Positions 6,001 to 63,753 of a stretch of DNA of 64,000 nucleotides are shown one piece after another. This DNA is from Tubulanus polymorphus (Eukaryota; Animalia; Nemertea). The position numbers and the translations under genes are program-made. Where the stretch lies: the NCBI RefSeq assembly GCF_964204645.1, contig NC_134029.1:18656950-18720949 (forward strand), in the 5' to 3' direction. Position 1 is the stretch's first letter; every line of letters starts with the position of its first letter. The notes beneath the pieces were generated by a model. It was not told the DNA's origin. It did not search any database and was given only the letters and a program-made list of their open reading frames with translations.

Positions 6001-7670
6001 ATTTCTAGAAATACATGTAAAAATAGTGGATTTCATGCTCATTTTCGTTATCGTAATTCTTATCCATTTTTCTCGAAGTTACCGATGACATGCAAAGTCC
6101 CCTATCATCTATAAAAGACTATCTTCCTTTCGTATCCATTCTAAACCAGCTCAATATCGTAACCTGGATCGAGTTACGTTCGAAAATGTAACGGTGTGTT
6201 CTGTAAAGTAAATGTGTGTAAATACAGGTTAATTCTACATTTTTCGTAGATGCTCTACTTTTCCTTTCTATTCTTTTCCTGAACATTATTGCCAAAATGT
6301 CAGTCTTTATCCGTATAAAAAATATTTGTTTTTCGACTTCTGTTGAAATAGTTGTATATATCTCTAAGTTGTACATTTTTGCAAAACTTGCAGTGTATAT
6401 TAAGATAATGTGCAGGAGTATGTAAGTTTATATTTCCATGTATTTACTTTTGACTTTGTGCTCGAAAAATTGTTAATGATTTGGAGCAATAAAGAATCTA
6501 ATCTGTAATCTATTCTTATTTTTAGGGGTGATCCTGGACGACTTGTTGAAAGATATTTTCATCACACCGACGTTGTTACGCGTAGTAAGAATATTCCGGA
6601 TCGGACGCGTGTTACGCCTGATCAAGGCGGCGAAAGGCATCCGCAAATTGCTGTTTGCGTTGATAATATCCGTACCAGCCTTGTTCAATATCGGCGCCTT
6701 GTTGTTCGTTGTCGTTTTCATATTCGCAATTGTCGGAATGTCGTCGTTCGGCCGCGTCAAACACAACGGCTTCATCAACGATTTGGTGAATTTCGAAACT
6801 TTCGAAAGGAGCGTTTTGGTGTTGTTCCGTTTGACCACGTCAGCCGGTTGGAATGACATCCTCGGCCCGTTGTTCGTGCAGCCTCCCGATTGCAACGATA
6901 CGCATTATATCGACCCCCGCGGGGTGCCGATCGCCGAATGGAACGGCAACTGCGGACTGCCGTGGTTAGCGTCCGGCTACATGATCTTGTTTGTGATGAT
7001 CACATTTTTGATCGTTATAAACATGTACATAGCGGTGATTCTAGAGAATTTCAACCAGGCACACGAGCAAGAAGAAGTCGGAGTTACCGAAGACGATTTC
7101 GAAATGTTTTACGTGATCTGGGAACGCTACGATCCGCACGCTTCACAGTTTATTAAGTACGAACAGTTATCCGATTTCGTCGCGGACTTGGACTTACCGC
7201 TAGGCTTGCCTAAGCCTAACGATTTAGCGCTTGTCGCATTCAATCTACCGATCGTCCAAGGCGAGAAATTGCACTGTTTAGACATTCTAATGGCGTTAGT
7301 AAAACGCCTGCTAGGCGACCCCGAACAGTCGAAAGAATTCGACGAGTTGAAAGTCGAAATGGAAGAGAAGTTCAGAGATACGTTCCCGTTCCGTGTGGAA
7401 ACCGATGTCATTGCGACTACTATGCAGCGTAAAAAAGAGGACGTGGCCGCTAAAACCCTACAGCGGGCTTGGAGAAAACACAAGGCCCAACAGAAAATTC
7501 GTAATATCACTGCATTGGCGCTTGCGCAGCGGCCAAACAGCAGTAACTTGAACAGCGCTACCTCAAGTTTAGCTAATACTCCCCGACGCGGGCTCAGTCC
7601 AGTCAGCCGGACATCGAATAGAAGTGCGACATTACAGGTTCCTACTCCCTCCAAAAATTCCAAGAGCTGA
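98..7670 (+). CDS. Voltage-gated sodium channel alpha subunit, Nav2 (DSC1/NaCP60E-like) type; domains III-IV and C-terminus, 5' part outside the window
   Basis: GT-AG exons joined in frame: 98-242, 607-780, 1047-1175, 1590-1868, 2003-2056, 2158-2295, 2432-2542, 3143-3413, 6526-7670. DIII S4 [18 protein letters not shown]; DIII pore ATFEGWMEV; III-IV linker [14 protein letters not shown]; DIV S4 [17 protein letters not shown]; DIV pore TTSAGWND; EF-hand region WERYDP; IQ-like [12 protein letters not shown]. Confidence 0.95.
4096..4236. repeat. Short interspersed MITE-like repeat with internal AAGACCAGTCT motifs
   Basis: Clearly related copy at ~37224-37360 and a diverged copy at ~56865-57080. 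Confidence 0.55.
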
Positions 7671-11586: not shown

Positions 11587-12021
11587 TTAGAATACCGACC
11601 CACATCTGTTATAGAACGAATCGCAAGAAGACGCTTTGCCATTCACTGTGCAACATTCCGAGGCATAACGACAAGGAACTCCATTCTGCTTACACCTCCG
11701 TGCCTTGCAAGTATTTTGGCCGCTAGCACCAGTTCGTGCGCATGTCACTTCAATCCCACGACGACCATGATCGCAACACTCGGTGGCCGTATCACAACCC
11801 CGGTTGATGAGCGTGCATTCCGATGGTAGACAGGCCCTTATTCCACCCAACGCACCCGCTCGGCAAATCACTTTTTCGTCGGCACCATCAGCTGCCGCGC
11901 AACAATCTGCGTCGGATTCGCAACGTCTATATAATCCCTTGCATTCTTTCGCGCCGACTTGCCCTGCAATAATGACCAGTAAGAAACTGCTTATTGCAAG
12001 CATATTCATTTTGCGAAACAT
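11587..12021 (-). CDS. Secreted cysteine-rich protein with 3 tandem knottin/ICK-like domains
   Basis: ATG at 12021 or 12009; signal peptide MNMLAISSFLLVIIAGQVGA; three C-x6-C-x5-CC-xn-C-xm-C units (18 Cys); TATATAAA at 12139-12132. Confidence 0.85.
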   Translation of the reverse strand: MFRKMNMLAISSFLLVIIAGQVGAKECKGLYRRCESDADCCAAADGADEKVICRAGALGGIRACLPSECTLINRGCDTATECCDHGRRGIEVTCARTGASGQNTCKARRCKQNGVPCRYASECCTVNGKASSCDSFYNRCGSVF

Positions 12022-12131
12022 AATGAATAGATCTTGTACGTTGATATAAAAATCGAGATAATCAAGATAATCAAGAACAAACACTCCAGCTAATATAAAC
12101 AGCCAATGCCACGACTACGGCCAATAGTGGC

Positions 12132-13220: not shown

Positions 13221-15611
13221 GTGCGGGTATTCACTGTTCGCTGTGTAAGAGAGGTCAAATGATCATTTAGTACCATAAAGTGTTAGCTCTTCGGTTTTAC
13301 TTCAAAATGAAATAAGAACGTTAGGCTCCAAGTTAAAGTGTTCGTTTTTGAAAGGCGTTCGGTTGTAACGATACAGTTATCGTCACATTACAATATAATG
13401 TGACGTTGATAGTGTTGATATGAATCTATATATATATAGATACATATCAATACTATTGTCTTATTGATTCATGCATTGCAAGAATTCCATATTTAAAAAA
13501 TGCCATCGTTTACAGTGGAGCACGTGCTATGGTCGCGAGAATTTCGTGCCATTATCATCGCTAGGAGATTGAACTAAAAGAAGGCACATTCAGTCGTCCA
13601 TCAATTCCGAAAACGATAGAAAAGACAAGTTCAGTCGTCTTTATCAATCACAAAAGTAGAAAAAGGCACATTTTCATAAGACGATGCAGATAATTTTCAA
13701 CAAATAGGCACACCATCGTCAGGATTTTTGTTTCCTATTTATGGCCTGGAAACTATCTGAATGCAGTAAAAATCTATAAGTTCTGTTATCCTTAGCAGTG
13801 GCGCCTGGATCCGCCTTTGGTTTATAGAATTCCGCTGAATCATTCTGTTGGCCGACCCCTAACTGAGAACATCCAGTTATTGATTATTTCGTTTATTTGA
13901 AATTACTGAATAAGGTCATAATGATAAATTGATATAGAAAGGCCCGATTTAAAGTTACAATTTAATAGTTAAAAATTTGATAGAGCTTCGGAGAATTTGG
14001 GAAGAGTCTCACAACAAAGAGCTGAGCAGAGCTTTACCATGCAGATAATATATGTGGTAAAGTGAAAAGAAGACGATGTCTTATTGCAAACAAACCTATC
14101 TAAACAGGGATGATTTGTGCACTTAAAATCCAAGAAGAAGATATCAGTATCCATAATTCTGTTAAATTCAGGTTAGATTGTATATAAGTAAATGACCCAG
14201 AGGTACCGCGTTTTTGGGGAATGCCCCAAACAACAATGTCCCACGAGAGGATGAGTTGTTATGGACATGAGATAATATTTTCTATACAATGTTGACAAAA
14301 GAATTTTCTCAACCCCTTCCAGGACTAGGTGAAAATAATCTATGCTGATTTGTTGGAGTACTTCGTTGTTTGGTGGTTAATATTTTTCTGGAAGTACGTC
14401 GAAAAAGCAATGATGTTACATTCGTAACGCCTTTATTTTTTCTATTTCAATTTTTTCTATTTCTATTGCACTGACTGGTCCAGGCTTCTGGAAATATCCC
14501 GTTATACTAACTTGTACATAAACCATATCGGACTATGCCCTGTCAACTTGCGCGCCAAGCTTGTTTGGACAAATCAGATATTTCACAGCCAGTTAGTTCT
14601 TAAAAGTCCTAGGAATATTCCAACGACAAATTCTGTATTGTGCAGTTCAGTTTAGAATATTGCCAGTACAATCGGCGGTCATTTCAACGGATGATAGACT
14701 TGTGTAAGACACCATTGAAATGCGGAACAACAAATTCTTTTCACAGCTAGCGGAGATGGCCTTTCAGGCCTTTCCTTTGTCCCCTTTATTTCTGCATAAG
14801 TTCGTAACCTGAACAGAATTAAAAGACAATCAAGCGCGGAAATTAATCGTGCTAACACGTCTATAGGCAGACATTTTGCCAGCCAACATGCGTGACTGGC
14901 TTAAATTTGAAGTGGGGAAGAATATAAAAGTCACGTATGGCTCGCGAAATACCAAAAGAAAATGTGAACAATGATTTACCTTATGAACTCCCCATCGGAA
15001 AAGTACTGGTGTTGTCTGAATGGAGTAGCCGAGTCACAACCATTTTGTGTTTGACTACTGGTGTAGTCAATTACGACCTAAGTGTTAAGAATACCACACT
15101 AACCGTACTGCCGTGACATTCTCTCCGGAACACACGACACACTAAAACACGGTAAAATATCAATTACTTCTATACGTTTTTCTTCGATTCTTATTATTCT
15201 TATCTGTATTTATAGTCAAATTAGTTTCGTTGATATTCTAATTATTTTGACTCATTAGCACATTGTGCAAATTCATCTATAAGAATATTTGACAGATTTC
15301 GCGCATGAGATATGAAATAGTGAAATTGGTGCTACGTATCAGCCTGGAAAGTGCGATAAACGCTGTATTTCACTCTGATAACGTGACTTTTTTGATTAAT
15401 TAAAAATCTCTTTGAATTAAGGAAATTTGATACCTTGTTTCTCCTTTCTGGTTAGCTTAAAAGTTGACCCGGCCGGCCGCCTATCTACCATATGTATCAC
15501 TTTTTTTTATCAGATCCAATCAATTTTACAACAACACCCCCGGCAGCTATAGAAATGAACTGATTACGTTATTGCATTTTACAAAAATGTTTGACTTACT
15601 CGTTTCAGAAA

Positions 15612-16181
15612 ATGAATGTTTATGTGGTAATTTGCTGTTTGTTGGTCCTCGCAGTATCCATCGATACCGCCTCCGCTTGCCAAAAAAGTTATGAAAAATG
15701 TGAATCGGATGCTGATTGTTGTGAAGGAACCAGAGGTCCCGATCGTAAATTGATATGCAAAGAATATCTCAACAAGAGAGATAATAAATTATGTTTGTAC
15801 GTGCCGGTGGCAGCGACATGCAGTAAAACCTACGAACCGTGCACCACGGACGAAGAATGCTGCGAAGAGGATGGCAAGGTAATAACTTGTCAGCTGCGCC
15901 GTGGGAAAAATGTCTGTCGTGAGAAAAAATGCAAGAAGACATACGAAGAATGCGAATCGGATTCCGACTGTTGTCCAAGCGAAGATTCCGCTAAGGAATC
16001 GATTTGCAAAAATATCTTTTTAAACAAGAAAAAGATGAAGATTTGCGCGTTCAAGCGTGTAGAAAAGTGCAAAAGAACCTATGAACCATGTCAATCCGAC
16101 CAGGAGTGTTGCAAGGAAGGAAATGGTGAAAGCCTAATCTGTGAGAAGTATTATGGCCAGAACGTCTGCATGAGGCCTTAA
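15612..16181 (+). CDS. Secreted cysteine-rich protein with 4 tandem knottin/ICK-like domains
   Basis: tttcag|aaaATG context; signal peptide MNVYVVICCLLVLAVSIDTASA; four C-x6-C-x5-CC-xn-C-xm-C units with consensus C-x-K-T-Y-E-x-C-x-S-D-x-D/E-C-C; AATAAA at ~16401. Confidence 0.88.
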   Translation: MNVYVVICCLLVLAVSIDTASACQKSYEKCESDADCCEGTRGPDRKLICKEYLNKRDNKLCLYVPVAATCSKTYEPCTTDEECCEEDGKVITCQLRRGKNVCREKKCKKTYEECESDSDCCPSEDSAKESICKNIFLNKKKMKICAFKRVEKCKRTYEPCQSDQECCKEGNGESLICEKYYGQNVCMRP

Positions 16182-25962: not shown

Positions 25963-26658
25963 CTATATAGGTCCAACGCTATCGCCTTTCTCGCCTTTCT
26001 TCTTCGGATAGCAAGCCTTTCTTGATTTGCCATTGGTACTATTGCCATACGGCAAGCACTGAACGTCCATTCCCAGACGCTTACAACAGTCGGAATCGCT
26101 TGAACAATTAATGTTAACGCAGTCTAGTCGACAACGCTTCCGTCCCAACAATCCCTTGCACACCGCGGAATTGCCACTGCGGTCGCTACAACAGTCCGAA
26201 TTGTCACTGCATTTCGAAAAAATACGTTTGCAATCCGGTCGACGTCGACAGGTGCCGCTTTTTCCATCCCCGATGACGCAAATTGTTGCCTTACCGTCGT
26301 TAGGACAACATTCCGAATCTGTGGTACACGGTTTATCAATCGCGCTGCACTCCTTTGCCTTTGACAGCTTACACACGGCGCCACTGCCTCTTACCTTGCA
26401 TGTAGCTACCATTCCAGGGCGATCGTCTGCTGCGCAACACTGATCATTAGATTCACACGATTCGTATCTAACGCGGCATTTTGACGGCAGACAGAATTTG
26501 CTTGCATCCTTCGAATTCATGAACGGTTTTCGGCACGTCACTCCATCTCCACAACACTTGTCACCCAAAGAACAAACGCTTCTATATTCTTTGCATCCCT
26601 GCGCGCTGATGTGCGCTACTACGAAGAGCAATAAACAGCTTCTCACCAACGCAGTCAT
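25963..26658 (-). CDS. Secreted cysteine-rich protein with 5 tandem knottin/ICK-like domains
   Basis: tttcag|aaaATG context as in gene 2; signal peptide MTALVRSCLLLFVVAHISAQG; five C-C-CC-C-C units (fifth has C-x4-C); 231 aa; upstream TATATAAA and a candidate 5' UTR donor at ~26822. Confidence 0.88.
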   Translation of the reverse strand: MTALVRSCLLLFVVAHISAQGCKEYRSVCSLGDKCCGDGVTCRKPFMNSKDASKFCLPSKCRVRYESCESNDQCCAADDRPGMVATCKVRGSGAVCKLSKAKECSAIDKPCTTDSECCPNDGKATICVIGDGKSGTCRRRPDCKRIFSKCSDNSDCCSDRSGNSAVCKGLLGRKRCRLDCVNINCSSDSDCCKRLGMDVQCLPYGNSTNGKSRKACYPKKKGEKGDSVGPI

Positions 26659-27007
26659 TTTCTGAAATAAGAAGGACGAACAATGTTAGTAACTTTGTCG
26701 AATCGAGAAATAATGTTCAACTTTGAGAGGAATAGTTCAACTTAACGAACATGAATTGAATATTCGAAAGATCCATTACTGATTCTATGTCCATATTCAG
26801 TAATTTCCATGATATCACATACCATATGTTTCTCAAGCCGATGTCACCCAGGGAATGTCGTGAATGCAACGGGTTTATATATATATATATACATCGTAAA
26901 CAAAGGAGCATTCATGCTTATCAGCATTTCGCGTAAAGCCGTAATATGCTTTAAACGATTGTGTAGTTGCAGTGAACGAGGACAATCTTTCTTTTGACTA
27001 GAATATC

Positions 27008-27801
27008 AGTAATAGGGGTAATGGGCTTTCAAGCCAAAGGTCGAACGGTCGAGCTCATTAAAAAACAAAACATTAAAAGTAATTTAAAACTATAATATAT
27101 TTTCATAACCGTGTGTATTTTATATTATAACTAAATATTTATTCTAAGATATCAATAATTTAAATTTAAAAAGCATATTGTATTAAATCAATTGGTCGCT
27201 CCACTTCGCTACCGCTCCGCTCCGCGACCAATTGATTTATTTACAATACACAAATTCATATAATCAAATATATTTTAATAATGATAATTATTCTATTATT
27301 CAACTGAAATACACACGGTTATGAAAATATATTATAGTTTTAAATTACTTTTAATGTTTTGTTTTTTAATGAGCTCGACCATTCAACCTTTAACCTGAAA
27401 GCCCATTACCCCTATTACTCTTAAAATAATCATGTACATGAATAACATTTAAATTGACAGATTATTCAATATAAAAGTATATATTTACAACATTATTTCA
27501 ATATTCATATTTGTGTGAGTTAGATTTTAAACATTAAAAGTGTTAGTAAAGTGTGATTGAAATAATACATGATATAAATCATTGAACTTCTAAAATCAAT
27601 ATAGTAAAAAAATATGTATAATAAATGGAACCAGAACAACCACAAATTATCAATATTACCAATAAGGGTAAAAAAAATATTTTAAAGCGTAAGGTTTCAG
27701 CGAACTCTAACTCTTTTTGAATTTTTACCTATTTTAATAAAAATTTGATATATAAATGTGCACAAGATTAATTAAAGTTCCCGCGAAAGACATGAGTAAT
27801 A
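27008..27801 (+). repeat. Left terminal inverted repeat; outer 412 nt form a fold-back hairpin
   Basis: Arms 27008-27120 and 27307-27419 are complementary (5 mismatches); central perfect 15-bp stem 27185-27199/27224-27238 with a 24-nt loop. Confidence 0.9.
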
Positions 27802-28605
27802 AATATATAAATTCAATATTATATTATTTAACTGTTAACAATAATTTAGCAGATATTTCAGGAGTAAATATAAATAGGTATTATAAATCTGAAAATAATG
27901 AATTAATTGAAACATCAGATATATTTTGCGATAATATAATGCTATATAAAATCATGTTAGAAAAAGAAATTATAAAAGAAAATAGAACAACTTTTCTAAA
28001 CGTTAATCAGAGAAAGATAACACATTATGAAATTATAGAATGTTTTAATCAAGGAGATATTATATTGGATAACTTAGCTATAAAAGTTACACGTTTTTTA
28101 ACAATTCATGATGATAATTCAAAATCATATATATTAAGTAGAATTAATCAAGAATTAAAATTAACAGATTATATTGCTGTATTTAAAATTTCATTATGCA
28201 ATCAAAATTTAAATGAATTAATACAGAAAATGGATAATATTGAAAAATTATTAAATGAAAAAAATTACAATATATTAGATGTAGATGTGACACAAGATTT
28301 TAAAGGATCATTTAATTCAGATGAAATAAAATCAATGTTCGAAAATAGAAAATATAAAGTTCTAAAAGAATTCTCCAATGGTTGTGTTTCAGCATTACAT
28401 AAGGATGATGAAATAAAGATCTATAATAAAACAGCATGTCAATTCAAATCTCCTGGTGTAAATATAAATTTCGGTTCAAATTTAATGAGTTACATAAATT
28501 GCTATCAAGAGAGGAGAATCATTTGAAAAATCAATTGAAACAGGATTAATTAGAATTGAAATAACAAGTATTTCATATTACTCATGTCTTTCGCGGGAAC
28601 TTTAA
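27756..28605 (+). pseudogene. Rep_trans (pT181 RepC/RepD-like) replication-initiator-like gene, frameshifted and 3'-truncated
   Basis: 256-aa ORF 27756-28526 with ILDVDVTQDF and IKIYNKT; the +1 frame from 28516 continues ESFEKSIETGLIRIEIT, then runs into the right TIR. Motif order matches Rep_trans (R)xDxAxD, IRIYNK, RxE. Assignment is from remembered motifs only. Confidence 0.55.
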
Positions 28606-29368
28606 TTAATCTTGTGCACATTTATATATCAAATTTTTATTAAAATAGGTTAAAATTCAAAAAGAGTTAGAGTTCGCTGAAACCTTACGCTTTAAAATAT
28701 TTTTTTACCCTTATTGGTAATATTGATAATTTGTGGTTGTTCTGGTTCCATTTATTATACATATTTTTCTACTAAATTGATTTTAGAAGTTCAATGATTT
28801 ATATCATGTATTATTTCAATCACACTTTACTAACACTTTTAATGTTTAAAATCTAACTCACACAAATATGAATATTGAAATAATGTTGTAAATATATACT
28901 TTTATATTGAATAATCTGTCAATTTAAATGTTATTCATGTACATGATTATTTTAAGAGTAATAGGGGTAATGGGCTTTCAGGTTAAAGGTTGAATGGTCG
29001 AGCTCATTAAAAAACAAAACATTAAAAGTAATTTAAAACTATAATATATTTTCATAACCGTGTGTATTTCAGTTGAATAATAGAATAATTATTATTATTA
29101 AAATATATTTGATTATATGAATTTGTGTATTGTAAATAAATCAATTGGTCGCGGAGCGGAGCGGTAGCGAAGTGGAGCGACCAATTGATTTAATACAATA
29201 TGCTTTTTAAATTTAAATTATTGATATCTTAGAATAAATATTTAGTTATAATATAAAATACACACGGTTATGAAAATATATTATAGTTTTAAATTACTTT
29301 TAACGTTTTGTTTTTTAATGAGCTCGACCGTTCGACCTTTGGCTTGAAAGCCCATTACCCCTATTACT
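28576..29368 (-). repeat. Right terminal inverted repeat with terminal fold-back hairpin
   Basis: Reverse complement of 27008-27801; hairpin spans ~28957-29368. Confidence 0.9.
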
Positions 29369-30518
29369 AATATCAACGTCCAACGCTCCACCAGCTCTGC
29401 AATAGCCGTTACATGTTGTACTGGAACACGAAAAGCAGCCATCCACACGCCAAATACTTTTTGCCCGAAATCCAATATCTGTTGATGAATGTTTGTACTC
29501 TAGATAACACTGGACTTGAAATTTTTCATGGGAAAAAAATATTGGGAACCAAAATTCAAGAACATTCGTTTGGATTAAAGACATCAAAATCAAATCCAAA
29601 CTGGATACCAATTAATGCCACAAGAAAATAGGTTCACTGTTTTCGATAATATCATTTTAACATAAATCGTAATGTCTGGAATGACTAAATCTATGAATCT
29701 ACTTCGATATATACTAAACATAATTATAATGATCATCGTATATATTCTCGGAGAAAATTTTTGGTTACCATTCGTCATTTGAGTGCGTTGCGCTCTATTG
29801 GCATACCTCTATTGCCATTTTCAAATCAGATACACGTCGGGAAACGGCAATGGAAATTGAAAAAAATGTGTGTTATCTATCCGAAATCAAGCCTATATTC
29901 GCCGAACTGACCAAGACGTCTGAATGTCTGAGCCCTCCGACTTCGTAACAACCGGTTCAGAGTTACCCTGGTCGAATAAATAGAGTCAATTTTCAGTTTA
30001 GTTTTTGTTCACCATTCAATCAAATCACATGATTGATCAATTCAAACAAAAAGGCAAAAAGAGAATCAACAAGAAACAATAAAAAGATTTAAACAAAGCA
30101 ACAAAAAGACAAAACATATATTCACTTTATTTACAGTTGTCAACACACATCAAGTTATTATAAAATGCCGATCTAGCCTCCCCAAATCTATTACTTCTCA
30201 TTTACAGCAAGTTTTCCAACGATGCGCTAGTGCGAGAACAAGATATATCATTATTATCATTGTTGGTATGCATGTTGTTATACAACAATATCATTGCTTT
30301 TTCCAACATTTTTTACAGGCCATGTGGTGCGGTACGGAGACTGATTTTTGCGATGTTTTATCAACCGCCGATTTCTAGACACTGTGGCGCGGCGGCGGCA
30401 ACTAACTAACGAAGTCCGCTGTGCAGTCCGCATCAGCAGAGACTGTGCAGTCAACCCCAAGGTCGTTGAACCAGTTTAGATCGGTTTGGTTTCGTTTGAA
30501 GCGATTTAACGCGCAGCA

Positions 30519-33500
30519 ATGAAGAATACTCGTTCAACTGGTTATTTGTTGATGATATTCTTGATAATCTTTGCATCAAACGTTGAACGAAATGCTGTTG
30601 AAGGGATTGGTCCATTGGCACCAGCTGTAGCAGTGGGTACTGCAGCTATCACGTCGTTTTTGTTGACAAGTTACGATTCGATCAAATGTCAATTCGTCGA
30701 ATGTTGTACGAATTCGTGGATCGATGCAAATATAACTGGTGAGTTTCATGGATAAACTATTTAAATGAATGCAGTGGATATTTTACTGCACATCATCGCT
30801 GATTGGCTGATTTACACCGCATGCGCACAGAGGTGCGCGACTTAGAAAATTCAAGGAAAGTGTGGAGAAGAGTTAGAGAAAATAGAGCGGATAGAGCGAG
30901 ACTCGAACCCGGGCCAGTAAATTACTAGTGCAGCGTCTTCCCACTAGACCACTGAGCTCGCTGAGAAGCAACCGAAGGTTTTAACCATCTATACTAGTAC
31001 CTCACCTTTACCCTAATCCTATCCCTAGGGGTAAAACGGACCCTAACCCTAATCCTAACCCTCTGGGTCGTTTAGACCCTAAACCCATAGGAACCCTAAC
31101 CCTAAACCCAATAAAATGATTTTATTGTTGCTTTTATTGATTAATGCTATAATTTATAGTATTGATGGTATGGTAAAATAGCGGAAGTGTACACTTTGCG
31201 GTATACGTTTAATTATCCACTTGGTGAAATGAACGCAGTGGATATTTTACCGTATACGGCAGAGTCTTTACTTCTGCTATTTTACCGTACATCGTCGCTG
31301 ATTAGCTGATTTATGCCGCGTATCCGCACTGAGGTGCGCGACTTAGAAAATTCAAGGAAAGTATCATACCACTAGAACAACGAGCTCGCTAAAAACCAAT
31401 CGAATGTTTTAATTAGATATTGCACCTAACCTTACCCTAATCCTATCCCACGGGTAAAACGGCTGCCCGTGCAACGGTGGATTGTCTCTGCCTTAATTAG
31501 GTGAGTAATTGATGGTCAAGAGCCCCCAAATCTCTATATGTGATCCTAACACTTGCCTGTGCCAGAAGGCTTTGAACGAATTGAGAGTTCGGGCGAAAAC
31601 TTGCAAGTCACCCCTATAGCTCAAGTGGTAGAGCAATCGCCCGGCAAGCGAGAGATGGTTCGAGTCCCGGTCTCAGTGGTTGACAGATTTCGCTCATCCG
31701 CTAGTACTTCACTAATTCTTTAATCACACACATGATTATAATTAGTTACAAGCTCTACCGCTGCCCGTGCAATGGTGGGGTGTCTCTGCCTTATTTAGGT
31801 GTGTAATTAATGGTCAAGAGCCCCCAAACTTCTATCTGTGATCCTAACCCTCTGGGTCCTTTTGACCCTTAACCCATCGGAGCCCTAACCCTAAACCCAA
31901 TATAATGATTTTATTGTTACTTATTAGTTAATACTATAGTACATAGTAATGATGTACAGTAAAATAGCCCTAGCGGAAGTAAACACTTTATCGTATATGG
32001 TTGAATATCCACTTCGTAAAATGAAACAAAATTTCAGATTTGCTATTTATGATATCATCTACCGTGGCGAGTCTCGATGCCATCAGGTTTAGATCCTTGC
32101 TGTTGAGGATGTACCTGCACCTGCCAGTTGGCAATCCAATGAGATGCGCAAGTTCTACTTTCTGCATCACGATCGTCTTTCCCAGTTACAACTGTCTGAC
32201 ATTGTGACTGACAGAGACTATAATATAATTGCACACTATCGCCGATGTTCACATCTCAGTCCACCTAAGGCTGACCTCCGCCTTGCTTAAGGTTCTCAGT
32301 GAAATCAAATACACGTCTTTGAAAAACTAGGCAAATTATCATTCTATGGTTGCATTAGTGTATAGGTATTTCAACAATGATTGGGCCTATAAGACTTAGT
32401 TGATCATTGTCAGTTTATTCTTGAGGCAGAGAAAGAAATTATTAGAGTTAGATTGTGTCAATATTATGGATCCTAAAAGTTTTTCTATTGGCAAATGATT
32501 TAACATGTTTACCGGTAGTTTGCCAGGCAGAATTTGTAAAGCTACACTGAATATGCTTCATTTTCATCAAACCAAACCTCAAATCTTGCTGTATACATAA
32601 ACAACTTGAATTGTACAAAAATGAGAATTAAATGATTAGCTCCAGTACAAACTACATGGAAATGCAGAAACATAACCACTAGGCCTGCATCGTTAATTAA
32701 TATGGGCTTTTTGTTTCAGGGTTGTCTCGTTCATTGAACACAAGACTACACGGGCAACACCTGGTCATAGGAGCAACTCTTAAGGCAGTTAAGGTAAAAT
32801 GATTTCATAGAAGTAGATATTTTGACAATGCGGCTATTTTGCCAATGGCTCATTTTGATTTGTTACTGGCGTACATGCACCCTTCAGAGAAATTACTGTA
32901 CTTCACTAAAACAGGCTTCAAACCCACCACCTACTGTCTCAAAAAGAACTCACGAATGTCAACTATCATTATATTAGGCCTCATTCAACCAATAGGCCTG
33001 TAGCCCTTAAGTAAATCCTTTTGTTTGAGTCCCGGTCTTGGTGGTGGACTGTTCCCCGATGCCACAAACATCGATACCTTGCGACAACTGGGAGTTAGCC
33101 TTCTTTACTGCTGTCTGTGCACTAGTGGGTGAAATGAAGAAATTCCATGAAATGCCAGTTGTTCATTGGTTATTTATCCAATGGTTAAACTGAAATCAAT
33201 TTTCGAGCAACTCAGCTCTGGACACTGTGGCTTTACAACTAACTGACATTGAAATTTCTACTGCGTGTTTATTTCAGGCGCATGTTAACAATCCTGACCC
33301 GAAGAAAGCTTTGACGCTCTCGTTTCACGGGTGGACGGGAGGCGGTAAGAACTACGTCAGTCGAATGATTGCTGACCATCTGTACGTGAAAGGAATGCAA
33401 AGCAGATACGTGCACCTGTTCATTTCAACGTTACACTTTCCTCACAAAAGTGAACTAGAAACGTATAAAGTAAGTATGTCAGTTGATGCCCCCCATAATA

Positions 33501-36674: not shown

Positions 36675-38306
36675 GCGGATAGCAGACGTATTTTTCTAAA
36701 TAACAATCTTTATCATGTGTGAAAAAATTATCTTATTGCGATATTTGATGTATGGTAATAACCATAATTGTGGCTCCGAAATTTAGATATTTTCGTATGT
36801 GGAATTTTATGTGCACAGTAACTATAAACAAGTTCCTTTACTGCTTGTTTCGGTTAGATTCTCAATGTTTTTCATTGCTCTTTCGATGCTCTTTGGGATC
36901 AATCTACTTCCTATGGTATCAATATTTAGGTCATGAATTTAGTTATCAAAAGTAACCGTAGTATGAATCACTGGTATACAATGAATGTATAGTTCTGTAA
37001 AAATGTGTTCTTTAGTCTCAGAATTACGTTCAGGCATAGTGGGAACTCCCCTCTCTGCTGTGCTAGAAAATGAATGCATTTTTCAATGTACTACCATATG
37101 ACCTTGTATGCGTATGTACTAATTGAATGAAGTTAGTATATGGAAGATGTCGACTACTGCACTGTAACTTGTGTTTTTATTGGTAATTCGATAAGACGTA
37201 TTCAATCCATTAAGAAACCAACCAGGGGCCAGTTGCATAGTCATGGCTTATATTCAAGACCAGTCTAAGACCAACTTCGTTTTATAGCCAATCTAACACG
37301 TTGAGGCCAGTCTCAAGTTTAAAGACCACTTTTGGACCAGAGTCACGACTGCAACTGGGCTTCGGGGCCTTTAGCCTTACTGGTAATGCTTAATTATTTG
37401 AGGAATATTCTCCTTGTGCCAAATTGTTCCTTTTATGATTTTAGTTGAAGATAATAGTAAGATCAATGTGAATTTAAACACAATGTGGACCTAATACTGG
37501 GTAGACTGGGAAGTCAATGATTTAATGATATTTTCTGTTATCTGCTGCTGGAAATAAATCGAAAACAAAGTTAAGTTATTGAATCGATGAATTTTTTAGT
37601 TTTATTCTCGGGATGTTTTCCCAGATTTTCATGTCGAATTGCCTGTACAGGTAAGCATCAAGGCGTTTGGACGATCCAGTCTTAGTACAGTAAACCTCAC
37701 CCAACTTGGACCAACTAGGACTGGCAAATTTTGTCCGAGGTAAGCCAATAACCGAGTTAAGACTATGAAAATATGTTAGCAAGTCACAAAAATTATTTCA
37801 TTTTTCTCAGAGATAATCAAATGTCTACGATAGCCATGTCCGAGTAAACCAAGGTTTGCTGTAGTTTAGCAGTGATTATGAATAATCATGGCTACGTAGA
37901 TTAACAACCGAAATCTTAACCTATCTCCAGATCTTCAATTTACGAAGCAATGTTGAACTCGACAGACCATGCCGCTTTATTTGAGATAAATGGGACTAGA
38001 GACGCAATCACTACAGAACGTATGGAACATATTGCTGTAAAGGGATCACTACATGTGTAGTTTGGGCTTGCTGTTTGTAGACTGGATATTTGTAGTTTTC
38101 TCTTGAAAATAATGATTTTTTTAGATTTAGATTTAAATTTATTGCTCCAGAAAATTGTACATTTTTTGCGAGCACAGGATACATACAAAATAAACAGTTT
38201 GCAGTTATACAATAACAGTTGCTAGTCATACAATAACTAGTTATATTTACAATTGAAAAGTTATTTTGAAAAGTTCGTGTATACCAGGAACAGCGATGAG
38301 GTGAGG

Positions 38307-41300
38307 CTAGATAAGGCTATGTGCCTTTTTTATAAAAACTGCAAGATTCCTTAGGACGTTTGGGTTTTCTGACGTAAAAAGGTTCATTAATTTTCTTATA
38401 TTAGGAAACGTTACTATTTGTTGCGGTATGTACCGACTTCTTAAACTTTCGAAAAAAGTACACTCCATTATAAAATGGTATTCGTCGCCGATTTGCCCTA
38501 GGTTACATTTGGTACAAAGTCGTTCATTTCGGGGGATATTTTCATATCTTCTTGTTTCAATCGGTAGATTATGATTAGAGCAACGAAACCGTATTACATT
38601 TGTCCTGAGGTCAAATGGTAGTGCTAATGAACATACTTCCCGCCCCCAATTCGGCTTAATAATTCTATAGGTATCTAGTTTTGTTGAAGCTGCGATAGTC
38701 TGGTGCCATTTCTGTTTGAATTGATCTTGTAAACATAATTTAACAGTTTCTGATAAATACCGGATATTCGGGAAAGATTGTTCGTACCAAATGTAACCTA
38801 GACCACAGTTTTCTAAGATAGACTGAATACAAGTGATCCATTTACTGGTCTTACCATTTACATGATTTTTTATTAGGATACGATACATTTTACTAGAATG
38901 AGAGTTGCTCTCTGTGATCAGATGTCCCCAAAACTTAACCATTCTGACTTTTATTTGTATTTCAAAAGGAAAACGACCTAATTCTCCATAAACCATAGCA
39001 TTTGGAGTTGCACGTTTCAATTTCAATAAGTATTTGCAGAACATTAGGTGTATTTTCTCGATTGCATCTAAGTTCGAGAAACCCCATATTTCACTACCAA
39101 AGGTAAGGATCGATCCCACCATTGCATCAAAAATTTTAAATGCAATGTCTATAGTTAGGGAGTATTGCTGTACTTTTTTAAGAACAAAAAATAGTGTTTT
39201 TTTTGCTTGGTCACAGATATCTTTTTTGCATTTAGCGAAATTTCCAGTATAATTAAAGTGTACTCCCAAATATCTAAAGTCAGATACTGTATCCAAGGCT
39301 ACCCCCTGATATAGAAAATGGGCTGTCTGTTAGATCGTCTTTTTTCGAAAACTATGGCTTTGGTTTTTTCGACATTGATTACTAACTGCCATGTTTGGCA
39401 GTAATCCACAACATGGTCAAGTATATTATGCAGTTTGGAAGCATTGTCAGATAATAATAAAGTATCGTCGGCATATAAAAGTATTAATATGTTAAACCAG
39501 AAATCATCCAGCTGGAAATCTAATCCTTGACACCCTTTCTCGTATAAGAAAGACTCGAGGTCATTGACAAATATGGAGAAAAGCACTGGTGACAGATTTT
39601 CCCCTTGACGTAACCCAATTTGACTATCTATGCTTTCTGATAATCGATCGTTTACCTTGACCTTAGATTTAATATGTTGATACATGTTATGAATCACTCG
39701 GAGGATATTTCCTGTAATTCCCGTTAAAATTAATTTATGCCACAGTGCTTTTCTCCATATTGTATCGAATGCTTTTTGGTAATCAATAAATATACAGTAA
39801 AGCTTCCGCTTATTACTAGTCAGAATATCTATAAGGGAATGCAATGTGAAAATATGGTCCATGATACTACGATTTTTTCGAAATCCAGCTTGATTTTCAT
39901 TCAGTAATTGGTTATCCATCAAAAACTCCTCTAAACGTTTATTAATCAGGCTCGTAAACAATTTGCTCATACAGCTTAATAGAGTAATTCCTCTGTAGTT
40001 ATCCGGATTGGAAGGGTCTCCCTTATTCTTAAAGATTGGAGTGATAATACCTACAGCCCACTCTTCCGGAATGCAGCCAGTTTTCAAAATATTGTTAAAC
40101 AACAAAACGAGGGTAGGCATGATTTCATTTTCTGCAGTTTTGAGGAATTCGTTTAAAATTTCGTCGTTTCCAGGGGCTTTATTATTTTTGAGGCATTTTA
40201 TACATTTAGATATTTCTCCCTCAGTGATTAGCCTATTAAGTGCATCATCATTGTGGTCATGAAGGAAGTCATTCACATTGAAAAAATTACGATTATCATT
40301 TTCTGCACTACGGTTTTGGTTAATGACGGAAAAGTGGTCAAATAAATCATCTAGCGACGCTTTACATTCATTTGGTTTTTCCTTTCGGAAATATTTCCAA
40401 AAAGCTTTTGGATCGTCTTTTGCTAACTTTCCTATTTGGTCATTGTGCAATTTAACTTTCTTTTGTTTTGATATCTTTATCGATGTTTTATACCTCTTAT
40501 ACGCCGAATTCAGATTAGTTCTATTTTGGACGGATCGATATCTTTTATAATTTCTTTTCGCTTTCCTATAAATTCTACGGTCTCGTTTCACTTTATAGTC
40601 ATGTAACAAAGTTTTTGGTTTGTCAAAGTTAACCCGGCTTCGGCCCATTGTGGCCCCTGCCGCCTTATTTAAAATGTCGCATATACGCTTATTCGCACAG
40701 GCGCTGTCTATTATATCATTTTGAAGTTCGATATTTATTTTATTCAATTCGGTTTGGTTGATTGCCTCTCTAAAAACATCGCTTCGACCACTGTTCCATT
40801 TAATTTTACCTGTTATGTTAGGCATGTTTTGTACATTTGTATATGGACTTCTCGTGTGTGAAATAGAGAAGGAACACGTAACAGCACAGTGTACGTCTGA
40901 AATCATTTGGTCATAGTCGTTTACATTGAAGTTCACGCATTTTGACAACAAATAGGGAGACATAATAAAGTAATCAATAACATGGTTATTTTCCCCTTTG
41001 ATGCACGTGTACTCACCGATTCCTTTATCCCTACCTAATCTGCCATTTGCAATGAACATGTTGTGATTTTTACAAAAGTCTAACAAACGATAACCCCAAT
41101 TATTGATAGAGGAGTCTTTGTTTTTCCTATTGAGTAGACCTTGTATTTTTAGTGCATCAAGGTTATGACGATCTTCCACAAAAACTTCGTCTAGGCCTAG
41201 GAATTCCATGAGTATTTCGTCATGGGGTAAATAGTCTAATAACTGCTTTGTGTAGGCATTGAAATCGCCACATAGACAAAAATAAGCATCGGTAGAACTC

Positions 41301-41743
41301 ATTCGGTTTATAACGTCAGTGTCGAGTTCATCGAATAAGTTAATATTTCCATATCTACTAGTTTCTGGGGGAATATATACTCCTCCAATTAACAAATGTT
41401 TTTTCCACCCTAGGAATCTCTTATCAATTTCAATCCATTGAATGATATTGGTTGATTTATGAATAGTTTTAATATATCTGTTTAGACTTTGCTTAAAAGC
41501 AACCAGGATTCCCCCAGATTTCCTTATAGCTAGATTTGATCTGTTATTCATGACTACTTCGTAACCGACACTTTTAAAATACTCTTTTACCCACAATTCA
41601 TCGGAATCATCAAGTTTGGTTTCAGAAAAAACTAAAATATCAGCTGACTTGCATAAACTATCAAACTCTAGAGTATATGATCTAGATTTCAAACCACAAA
41701 TATTCAGACACAGGATACTAATTTCTCCTGGCTCGGCGCAATC
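38307..41743 (-). CDS. LINE ORF2: AP endonuclease + reverse transcriptase + C-terminal CCHC; 1-nt frameshift at ~39302
   Basis: LNICGL, SETKL, GDFNA, IDYF, SDVH (APE); KAPGND, NYRGITLLS, DYQKAFD, GLRQG, YADD, YLG (RT); CTKC...DEYHFIMEC. One extra G in the G5 run would restore IRGVALDTV. Confidence 0.9.
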
Positions 41744-41965
41744 CTATTCTGGAGCTGTTGCTAGCGGTTGGGATAGATGTAATCCACTGTCCATATCCAA
41801 GACGAACCTGGCGTCTCGGAGCGCTTCGTTTACTGATGATTGTTCAGGTTCAGACGCTACTCTGGCTCTTTTTTCCGGAGGTCTAACGGTATCCCGTTTA
41901 CGATTTCCAGCAGGCACGGTTTTACGGGTGCGCGATTTCGTAGAGTTGGTCAGTGTGGCGTATTC

Positions 41966-43078
41966 CTAGCGGCTGGTTGTTTCGTTCGCACCAGATGTTG
42001 CATCATTATTAACAGCAACTTGAAGTGGCAGGGTAGGTGAAGCTCGAAACGTAAAACCAGAAAAAGTACTTTCATCACGGGAAGGGGTTACAACGGGCTC
42101 TGTCGCTGGGGTTCGGTTTTTTTCATCATTACTTTCATCGCGGGCAGGGGTTACATCGGGCTCTGTCGCTGGGGTTCGGTTTCTTTGAGCCGGCGCGTTG
42201 CGGTTTATCGGTTGCCTATGTGGCACGGAGCGACTTATCAATCGCCCATTACTCGCTATTTTAAGTTCTTTCTTGGCTTCTGGTATAAAATCTAGAACTC
42301 TTCGGAAGTTTATGTCATTGAGACGTTCCGCATGTGATTGGCTTGATCTCAACCAGACATCAGTGAACTTAGGATTTTTTCTAAGATTATGTTTCTTTCG
42401 CAAGACATCGATTTTAATGGCTTTTGTTTTCAACGCGACCTTTACAAGCGGATTTCTCTGACCATTTCTAATCGGCAATTGCTTGTGAGCTGTGATTGCT
42501 TGTTTATGGCCAAGATAGTCAAACATTTCTTCGCATGTTTTTTGGAGATCAGATTGGAATTCTTTCTTCAAGTCGCTCACGATAATGCAGAGTTCTGCAC
42601 AGTCTAGTGGGTCGGGGCAGTTTGCAGTGAGGCCTGAGTTCACTTGGCACTGCAGCTCTATGCAGAGGCTTTCTAATTTTTTTATATCTGCCCTTGCGGC
42701 TTTAAGGCTTGTGGTGAGGCTGTTTACTTTCCCTGATGTGAAGTTCAAGTCTGAGATCAACTTTTGATTTTCATTTTGAAGGTCGTCGTAGGATTTGCTG
42801 GTGTATTGAACCGAGTCAGCGAGCTCGTCGATAGTTTTTGATTGGTTTTGTAGTTTTTCATTAATACTACTTATGTCAGTATCATGGACACGAACTGTGG
42901 TTTTCAAAGAATCGAAACTATCGGTCATTTGTTTCTGCTCAAGTTGAATATCATTCAAGCGCTTCATGATGTCAGCGACTGAGCTTTTCATAAAAGATTC
43001 AAAATCTGATACTAAGTCTGATTCTGGTTTATCACCAGAGCATCGGTTGTTTCGTTCCATTTTGTAGTCGCACGTCAA
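41966..43078 (-). CDS. LINE ORF1 (coiled-coil, RRM-like region, low-complexity tail)
   Basis: 370-aa ORF upstream of ORF2 with a heptad-rich N-half, PLVKVAL...KIDVLRKK..LR motif, and duplicated NRTPATEPxVTPxRDES. Confidence 0.8.
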   Translation of the reverse strand: MTCDYKMERNNRCSGDKPESDLVSDFESFMKSSVADIMKRLNDIQLEQKQMTDSFDSLKTTVRVHDTDISSINEKLQNQSKTIDELADSVQYTSKSYDDLQNENQKLISDLNFTSGKVNSLTTSLKAARADIKKLESLCIELQCQVNSGLTANCPDPLDCAELCIIVSDLKKEFQSDLQKTCEEMFDYLGHKQAITAHKQLPIRNGQRNPLVKVALKTKAIKIDVLRKKHNLRKNPKFTDVWLRSSQSHAERLNDINFRRVLDFIPEAKKELKIASNGRLISRSVPHRQPINRNAPAQRNRTPATEPDVTPARDESNDEKNRTPATEPVVTPSRDESTFSGFTFRASPTLPLQVAVNNDATSGANETTSR

Positions 43079-45510
43079 GCAGCCGAATAAGTGTTACACA
43101 ACGAGTTAATACACACTACGCAGTTAGACCACAAAACTCCGGGTTGTAATCCTTCGAGCGTGACGGTTCACCGGTCGTGCACAGGTTATATATCACCAGT
43201 ACTCAAATTTATAGCAATTTGCGACAACTTTTACGATCGAAAATAATGTACATACTCAATTTCCACGACGCTAAAACACGGTTGTACAGTAGTATCCTAT
43301 GAGTTCTCGCTACTGACCGCGTTTGGTACTGTATTTCCAACCGCTGACAGACGAGAATCGGAGTTTTTAGCAGCACTAGAAATTTCAAGAACCAGCACCC
43401 GCCATATTGAATCTATAAGATTAGGTTAGTCCTCGGGGCATAATCCAGTTACTCAATCTTGATGCTTAAAGAGTTACCAATTGAAATACAGCTACGTTTT
43501 ACTCATATTGCTAACTCTCAAAATGGCCCTTGGTTAAAGAATAATCCTTAAATTTCTTCTTAAAATGTTCATTCTATAGACACCAATCACCAAAAGATAT
43601 AAACGAATGCATTGTACATAAACTGGGATTTATTTCAACAATCATATTTATATACATGAATAATTACTCAATATACAATACGCTCATTATTGAGCTATAA
43701 GGTCGGATAAATAGAAATCTATTTCACGTCAATCGAGCGCTGCACAGTTGATCAACAATCAAGAATGATCGAGCAGTTGATCACAACAATCACGAATGAT
43801 CGAGCACAGTTGATCAACAAAAAAGAATGACTAGAGAAATTTCAAGCTCGAATGAGTTAAATATACATTGTATATTCCTTCCATAACCATTTGTAGAGGT
43901 GTCAAACTTGGCACATTTTTATGGAAATCGTCATTAAGATCTCAAAACTGTGTACATTGTTTGGCCCTATCTGGGGATGCAGAATACATTTGAACTACAT
44001 AGCCTCCAAATTTTGACATTTCCCCGAAAAAGTAATCTAAAACACGGCATTATCTATTATGCTGTAATATAATCATCAGATCATCGGGAAATTTTCTAAA
44101 ATGGCCTTTGAAAAGAAATGATGCATAATGCTTTCTACGAAAGACTACGTATGATATTTCATAGATTTTCATAAATTTTGTCCGAGGTAAGCCAATAACC
44201 GAGTTAAGACTATGAAAATATGTTAGCAAGTCACAAAAATTATTTCATTTTTCTCAGAGATAATCAAATGTCTACGATAGCCATGTCCGAGTAAACCAAG
44301 GTTTGCTGTAGTTTAGCAGTGATTATGAATAATCATGGCTACGTAGATTAACAACCGAAATCTTAACCTATCTCCAGATCTTCAATTTACGAAGCAATGT
44401 TGAACTCGACAGACCATGCCGCTTTATTTGAGATAAATGGGACTAGAGACGCAATCACTACAGAACGTATGGAACATATTGCTGTAAAGGGATCACTACA
44501 TGTGTAGTTTGGGCTTGCTGTTTGTAGACTGGATATTTGTAGTTTTCTCTTGAAAATAATGGTTAGTCCTCGGGGCATAATCCAGTTACTCAATCTTGAT
44601 GCTTAAAGAGTTACCAATTGAAATACAGCTACGTTTTACTCATATTGCTAACTCTCAAAATGGCCCTTGGTTAAAGAATAATCCTTAAATTTCTTCTAAA
44701 AATGTTCATTCTATAGACACCAATCACCAAAAGATATAAACGAATGCATTGTACATAAACTGGGATTTATTTCAACAATCATATTTATATACATGAATAA
44801 TTACTCAATATACAATACGCTCATTATTGAGCTATAAGGTCGGATAAATAGAAATCTATTTCACGTCAATCGAGCGCTGCACAGTTGATCAACAATCAAG
44901 AATGATCGAGCAGTTGATCACAACAATCACGAATGATCGAGCACAGTTGATCAACAAAAAAGAATGACTAGAGAAATTTCAAGCTCGAATGAGTTAAATA
45001 TACATTGTATATTCCTTCCTTAACCATTTGTAGAGGTGTCAAACTTGGCACATTTTTATGGAAATCGTCATTAAGATCTCAAAACTGTGTACATTGTTTG
45101 GCCCTATCTGGGGATGCAGAATACATTTGAACTACATAGCCTCCTAATTTTGACATTTCCCCGAAAAAGTAATCTAAAACACGGCATTATCTATTATGCT
45201 GTAATATAATCATCAGATCATCGGGAAATTTTCTAAAATGGCCTTTGAAAAGAAATGATGCATAATGCTTTCTACGAAAGACTACGTATGATATTTCATA
45301 GAACACTTCGCTATCGTAAATAATGCTGTCATGGCATGAGAACATATCAGTCGATAAGAACTCAACGATTTTAGCCACATTAGTCGATACGCACAATTCG
45401 TGTTCAACAGTTTTTATCAGCACAAATGTTCTTGTTGTAAGCACCATTATCATTAGAATATCCTGAGCAGAGTTGAGTTGTTGATTATTTAGCGAGCGCT
45501 TTTTCGTCGT

Positions 45511-63753
<18,243 letters not shown>

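Follow-up and report, generated by a model that had tools for sequence, protein, structure and literature searches.

A 2,361-bp insert (27008-29368) in the stretch of Tubulanus polymorphus DNA analysed here (the window, 64,000 nt) raises the question of what kind of mobile element combines long inverted repeats and a 6-bp target-site duplication (TSD) with fold-back ends and a gene for a predicted Rep_trans-fold nickase. The original prediction for this locus was of a recent insertion of a deletion derivative from an element that replicates by rolling hairpin with a non-HUH nickase and integrates by means of an integrase, a combination of traits that would set it apart from the described mobile elements of eukaryotes. 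We address that proposal through the structure of the insert, the abundance of its ends in public reads, the protein family to which its gene belongs, and the metagenomic elements in which that family also occurs.

Architecture and decay of the insert

Re-measurement of the sequence bears out the AT-rich insert, exact TSD and AGT...ACT termini from which the prediction started. GC content in the insert is 0.236 as against 0.33-0.44 in the remaining 1-kb bins of the window, and AATATC abuts it on either side (27002..27007 and 29369..29374, both given on the + strand), an exact duplication that has a probability of ~5e-4 by chance given the composition of the flanks. The terminal inverted repeats (TIRs; 27008..27801 on the + strand, 28576..29368 on the - strand) are near-identical, as proposed, with 99.24% identity over a 794-bp alignment (5 substitutions and 1 indel). 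The unique core between them measures 774 bp, matching the ~775 bp claimed, but the one gene assigned to that core is a broken fragment whose ORF begins 46 nt within the TIR; the right inverted repeat is the left end inverted, these first 46 nt of the nickase gene included. Genes for pPolB, integrase, ATPase, protease and capsid are absent from this defective copy.

The gene fragment (27756..28526, + strand) encodes 256 aa of a nickase-like protein with a predicted Rep_trans fold, shares 46-51% identity with the N-terminal portion of proteins of 616-1,051 aa, and keeps the motifs FCDN, DxDxTxD and KIYNK. Intact relatives span 600-1,080 aa, and the window ORF is a frameshifted, shortened 5' part: the frame is lost near 28512-28514, and an out-of-frame remnant with the R-x-E motif, recovered by tblastn at 28513..28576 (+ strand), is cut by the right inverted repeat. 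Other copies have neither of these breaks. Because those copies run past 28576 into different sequence and lack the frameshift, the insert looks like two left ends joined within a decayed nickase gene. A further ORF of 31 codons, identified by translation (27625..27720, + strand), starts in the TIR and is likely the start of another gene, since most family copies diverge after 27665. Both ORFs start with TAAATG, a poxvirus-like late start, to which we give no weight, since the DNA is AT-rich and metagenomic relatives have this start inconsistently.

Copy number and family ends in public reads

Public runs holding part of the stretch number five, four of them labelled as one organism, and no RNA run holding part of it was listed. 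X6 consists of raw whole-genome shotgun reads from another sample and study, of which ~12% were used; X5, a marine metagenome (share 0.07), holds scraps only and provides no evidence of habitat. Mean depth in X6 is 6.8 in the left flank (averaged over 9 of 11 bins after removal of the two at the edges), 33 in the core, 731 in the inner TIR and 1,275 at the hairpin centre, ratios that correspond to ~5 copies of the core gene per genome and ~100-190 related ends. The reads place the family terminus at 27007/27008, where 1582 reads have loose flanks (1,273 at 27008 and 309 at 27007). The low agreement among these flanks (0.35) points to an exact terminus at many insertion sites, and the 309 reads are explained by flanks that end in C by chance (0.195 vs 0.21). 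A multi-copy family with a precise terminus is thus supported.

The high-copy family end is shorter than the TIR found here. At 27665, ~700 reads (692) exit the repeat into other sequence, and past this point depth is at core level; the drop indicates that the family end is ~658 bp (27008-27665 only) and that the last 136 bp of the repeat, which hold the first codons of the gene and the sequence upstream of them, are duplicated. Further reads exit near 27600 (322-343 reads) and at 27064 (437). The left TIR-to-gene join is backed by 32 reads. Past 28576, 30 X6 reads as well as X2 and X4 contigs continue into other sequence, and the frameshift near 28514 is absent from 22 of 29 X6 reads and from the X1, X2 and X4 contigs. 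A real insertion and, as predicted, a deletion derivative are likewise supported.

These same counts bear on whether the gene belongs to the element at all. The ends might be those of an ordinary pPolB Polinton, or of another DDE family with TIRs, that carries fold-back modules, in which case the nickase would be cargo of a minority subfamily and would not drive replication. The strongest point against the explanation we prefer is that more than 90% of the ends reaching 27665 lead elsewhere (~700 exits against 32 reads at the join), so the gene is possibly a passenger. The small ORF at 27625 is, moreover, interrupted where the gene segment begins, and the 437 reads that leave at 27064 share the first 57 bp only, as families with common TIRs do. 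We return below to three observations on the gene family that speak against this account, the chief competitor of the one we prefer, which we judge somewhat unlikely overall.

The reads also bear on whether the inverted structure is genuine. No displayed read spans the right junction of the insert, from core to right TIR, and X6, X2 and X4 run into other sequence there, which would suit an artefact of assembly or a fold-back chimera. However, the flanks are unique and not mirrored and bear an exact 6-bp duplication, and a chimera would not be expected to yield TIRs that differ at 6 sites, with the read majority agreeing with the right TIR at 4 of them. An X1 contig also leaves the flank and extends into the TIR for 24 nt (a length under the 31-letter bar, in a run that may be the source sample). 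An artefact is in our estimation extremely unlikely. Agreement of most reads with the right TIR at those sites is what mutation after insertion would be expected to give; the claim of a recent insertion holds only moderately, the TIR pair being already different at 6 sites.

In X1 the core contig is ~36 times as deep as the flank contig, compared with ~5 times in X6 and 2-4 times in X2. Contig depth is not copy number, and the excess in X1 could reflect amplification or free copies.

Terminal fold-backs

Each TIR ends in a fold-back of the proposed ~412 nt (27008..27419 at the left and 28957..29368 at the right). The left one is an imperfect palindrome, itself bounded by AGT...ACT, with 113-nt arms and an asymmetric centre of 186 nt. 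The predicted folding energy of the terminal 412 nt is -139.9 kcal/mol (z -27), and none of 100 shuffled sequences was equally stable. Outer arms of 113 nt with 5 mismatches lead into an asymmetric AT-rich bubble and then an inner stem and loop (27184..27239), predicted to fold as a 16-bp stem and a 24-nt GC-rich loop with short GGAGC-like repeats, possibly a protein-binding or nick site. Against an expectation of 0.05, the window holds four occurrences of the terminal 18-mer, one at each end of each fold-back. On one strand, each of the five mismatches in the arms is a G-T pair (p ~1/16), which we did not use as evidence. With regard to flip/flop isomers, the hairpin has one orientation only, at both ends of the insert; the 150-nt reads barely cross the 113-nt arm and report on the top joints only. 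A search of Rfam returned no match, nor did a scan of IMG/VR with the terminal 19-mer. The fold-back at 27008-27419 is read deeper than the TIR behind it and, given this coverage and its own AGT...ACT bounds, may also be mobile alone as a MITE-like unit.

Predicted fold and catalytic residues of the protein

The designation of the protein as a Rep_trans initiator draws support from the predicted fold, modelled for homologues and not for the broken window protein, and from the D-D-Y-E motifs, but not from Pfam. The 256-aa ORF has no meaningful Pfam match, the 25 families listed across 47 members do not include PF02486, and a PDB sequence search found no match for the family. In the alignment of 47 sequences, Y252 is conserved in all 47, D66 and D188 in 46 each and E301 in 44 (P0016 numbering); rows lacking a catalytic residue are shortened sequences, with the exception of one D-to-N change. 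This retention of catalytic residues argues against a gene that is only cargo. In an AlphaFold2 model of homologue P0016 (pLDDT 86.9), D66, D188, Y252 and E301 each lie on a beta strand. Rep_trans proteins are characterized, in PMC5714925 and PMC13107129, by a beta-strand tyrosine, D, D and E ligands, and YxK and RxE motifs; we equate the D-D-Y-E residues of the two groups from their order and their placement on strands rather than by superposing individual residues.

Foldseek with the P0016 domain model ranked RepDE, RepD and RepSTK1 chains first to sixth (E 2.0-4.4e-4), followed by TBP, at modest structural scores (TM 0.24-0.30 by query). With VIA, RepSTK1 scored Z 7.2-7.3 at an rmsd of 5.3-5.6 with 179 aligned, a score that TBP and ribosomal S6-like chains equalled. 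The full-length model agreed more weakly with Rep_trans; in BFVD it matched an inovirus Rep and a phage SSB, the latter no more than a lead to the extra domains. An Atlas feature search gave Phage_CRI as a lead (0.92, 18% of members); Atlas returned no result for homologue P0003, and for P0018 it placed RdRP clusters on top (0.93), an assignment that the fold search did not support.

The family thus shares its predicted TBP-like fold with the Rep_trans proteins RepD/RepDE (4CWC, 4CWE) and RepSTK1 (4CIJ), with Phage_CRI (PF05144) and with the archaeal Rep-Arvir (PMC13107129), and has in common with these groups the strand tyrosine, the acidic order D, D, (Y), E, and the YxK and RxE motifs. It differs from Rep_trans in its motif I, which is D-x-D rather than R-x-D; in its length of 600-1,080 aa, which includes additional domains in the middle and at the C-terminus, and no Pfam match to Rep_trans among 47 members; and in its setting, since it is found in animal and ciliate genomes and is tied to linear fold-back ends, not circles. 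A conserved His pair is lacking among the family's invariant columns, and no HUH or SF3 Pfam domains were found in the full-length homologues. The absence of that pair and the TBP-like predicted fold agree with the earlier claim of a non-HUH protein, and the homologue models suggest that the protein, though outside the Pfam family, likely acts in the manner of a Rep_trans nickase.

Distribution of the family

The protein family, which has no name, is found in insects, a ciliate and metagenomes. We obtained 40 relatives by phmmer at E<=0.001 and 30 matches of a more distant clade by a search from homologue P0018; a profile search with A2, in which 7,988 candidates were scored, added 2 proteins. 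Named carriers are six Schistocerca species, Planococcus citri, Cacopsylla, Aphis glycines, Tetrahymena utriculariae and a Baumannia MAG contig, and a quick, midpoint-rooted tree places the window protein in a clade of 7 rows. No family member was found by tblastn in 72,556 plasmids and 50,697 phages or in scans of IMG/VR, and GTDB yielded a single locus, L011, which is identical to L006 and lies on a 3.6-kb MAG contig.

In the six Schistocerca species (P0072, P0084-P0088) a homologue of 771-778 aa lies on a large chromosome and forms one 90% cluster, possibly a domesticated copy. The members on bacterial MAG contigs, P0058 (Baumannia, 60 kb) and L011 (Terracidiphilus), reflect either binning contamination or transfer.

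Metagenomic elements carrying the gene

A scan of metagenomes found the gene family at 10 loci, which represent 8 distinct elements once L002/L003 and L009/L010 are merged. All are AT-rich and most are multi-gene, on contigs of at most 7 kb. Two of the eight have terminal fold-backs, a feature that at contig ends can arise as an assembly product: L008 terminates in a fold-back of 930 nt, whose arms measure 257 nt and whose centre is asymmetric and pairs in part, and L002 in one of 800 nt with 104-nt arms. L003 ends exactly at the inner edge of this arm, and two isomers would split the assembly where it stops. The other six have no terminal fold-back, most of their contigs stopping short, and in L005 the gene is folded on itself at 86.5%. 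The occurrence of the gene family beside terminal fold-backs in two unrelated elements, and the fact that none of the metagenomic contigs that carry it shows pPolB, are the remaining observations against a nickase that is merely carried by a Polinton.

Neighbouring genes encode C2H2 zinc fingers, an HNH nuclease bearing the C-terminal module of the family, and a PriCT-2/SF2 helicase. Neither Pfam, for 14 neighbour ORFs, nor PHROGs, for 10, identified an integrase, pPolB or capsid; these scans left out low-complexity, antisense and duplicate ORFs and covered contigs of at most 7 kb. The PriCT-2 and SF2 helicase gene (L010:4164-7073, - strand) faces the nickase operon and is accompanied by repeated intergenic blocks; IMG/VR holds no close relative of this helicase, and a search there with the HNH neighbour from L003 gave 4 loci, with the nickase in none. 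An ORF of 175-187 aa lies within the loop of the terminal fold-back of L002 (L002:4692-5494), and because of this position L002 may have an end that can invert and that carries a gene.

One end leading into several inner sequences, together with the many homologue-bearing contigs of 2.4-4 kb, is also what might be seen in a segmented virus-like system, in which segments share a hairpin end and differ in their genes and the insert would be the replicase segment. A precedent for such an organization is Vesanto virus, with up to 12 segments of 3.3-5.8 kb and shared TIRs (PMC8363768). However, contigs of 2.4-4 kb fit mRNAs equally well, in both L003 and L010 the gene is part of a multi-gene unit of at least 7 kb, no capsid was seen, and IMG/VR scans returned no family member; we consider a segmented system very unlikely.

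A proposed model of hairpin replication and integration

The explanation we prefer, and to which we would give an even chance, is that the insert is a defective two-left-end copy of a multi-copy, Polinton-like linear element with a predicted Rep_trans-fold nickase. The element likely replicates by nicking its terminal hairpins and copying them, and the insert likely owes its integration to a retroviral-type integrase acting in trans. Under this model the terminal palindrome would fold and self-prime synthesis, the nickase would cut opposite the hairpin base and remain linked to the 5' AGT end, and a host or element polymerase would copy the hairpin, giving an extended palindrome whose blunt end finishes in ACT-3'OH. 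The ACT-3'OH ends would then be joined by an integrase with a 6-bp stagger, and a template switch within the gene would produce the two-left-end structure. The ends do have the form of an extended palindrome with AGT at the 5' edge and ACT at the 3' edge, which is how hairpin transfer leaves them. For the rolling-hairpin replication of the original prediction the evidence is indirect, namely fold-back ends here and on two of the eight metagenomic elements with the gene family. Against our explanation stand the small share of ends that lead into the nickase gene (~5 of >100) and a TSD seen for one copy.

A nickase could in principle also be the transposase, a dimer on the 5' ends nicking the target 6 bp apart and exchanging strands without an integrase, and among the neighbour ORFs no integrase was seen beside the gene. 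The exact TSD and TIR termini nevertheless fit DDE chemistry, the contigs lack the length needed to exclude an integrase, and to our knowledge tyrosine nickase transposons generally have no fixed TSD. We regard this route as decidedly improbable and retain integration by an integrase supplied in trans. PMC10045372 gives 6 bp as the characteristic TSD of Polintons while also recording 6-bp TSDs in IS3EU, GingerRoot and IS481, PMC4028283 describes Tlr elements in which the Polinton integrase can accompany another replicase, and PMC4028283 and PMC11296320 report that Polinton-like elements exchange replication modules.

We put forward more tentatively, at somewhat under even confidence, that these elements may constitute a distinct and widespread class: hairpin-ended linear replicons of animals and protists that use a Rep_trans-fold nickase for rolling-hairpin replication, have a Polinton-type 6-bp TSD, and form a eukaryotic branch of a bacterial and archaeal enzyme family. 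According to a 2026 paper (PMC13107129), Rep_trans enzymes are confined to bacteria, to which that paper adds a branch in archaea, and our literature search, with Repbase, Dfam and subscription journals outside its scope, found no eukaryotic Rep_trans element. The family would extend the Rep_trans class to the mobile DNA of eukaryotes, in grasshoppers, a mealybug, a psyllid, an aphid and Tetrahymena. If the nickase drives hairpin replication, rolling hairpin would have emerged with another nickase, unrelated to the first, and a further replication module would be added to those of Polinton-like integrating elements. In L002 an intact gene adjoins its own fold-back end, which makes the mechanism directly testable.

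Comparison with known systems

Polintons/Mavericks and Tlr elements resemble the insert in the 6-bp TSD (seen here for one copy) and in their long TIRs (794 bp here, ~658 bp family-wide). Polinton termini are AG...CT. The elements described here differ in that no pPolB, integrase, ATPase, protease or capsid was seen in the insert or the 8 metagenomic elements, and in the presence of a predicted nickase-type gene and 412-nt terminal fold-backs. Parvoviruses and densoviruses also have palindromes at their ends, within the inverted terminal repeats, and use a tyrosine nickase (a predicted one in our case). By contrast, their Rep is an HUH domain fused to an SF3 helicase, whereas the window family has neither the HUH motif nor a fused SF3, and no capsid was seen for the window element; parvoviruses also have, as far as we know, no fixed TSD. 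Helitrons and Replitrons are likewise eukaryotic mobile DNA with a tyrosine nickase (PMC6431247), but of the HUH type, and without long TIRs and 6-bp TSDs. Bidnaviruses and the Drosophila Vesanto virus are similar as linear units with shared TIRs and different cores (PMC8363768); unlike our elements they encode pPolB, and the TIRs of bidnaviruses form no hairpins (PMC4061559).

Other features of the window

Three single-exon ORFs with a signal peptide and Cys-rich repeats (11587-12114, - strand; 15564-16181, + strand; 25963-26685, - strand) look like multi-knottin proteins. The last of them lies ~320 bp from the insertion and has a weak Pfam match to Toxin_12 (E 2e-4). A region with long ORFs of 375, 814 and 340 aa (38307-43093, - strand) we take, by eye, to be a LINE-like element; it is adjoined by repeats at 37726-38117, 43424-44165 and 44173-45302, comprising 742-bp and 392-bp units at 99.6-99.7%. 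Exons at 6480-7670 (+ strand), 30510-30755 (+ strand) and 54025-54420 (- strand) appear to resemble, respectively, the C-terminus of a voltage-gated sodium channel, the N-terminus of torsin, and a class III PI3K. The putative sodium-channel exon and the LINE-like ORF, both picked out by eye, give the window an animal appearance. Finally, a cluster of 80-95% direct repeats at 30763-31553, which includes a 123-bp palindrome (31168-31290), likely represents small non-autonomous elements.
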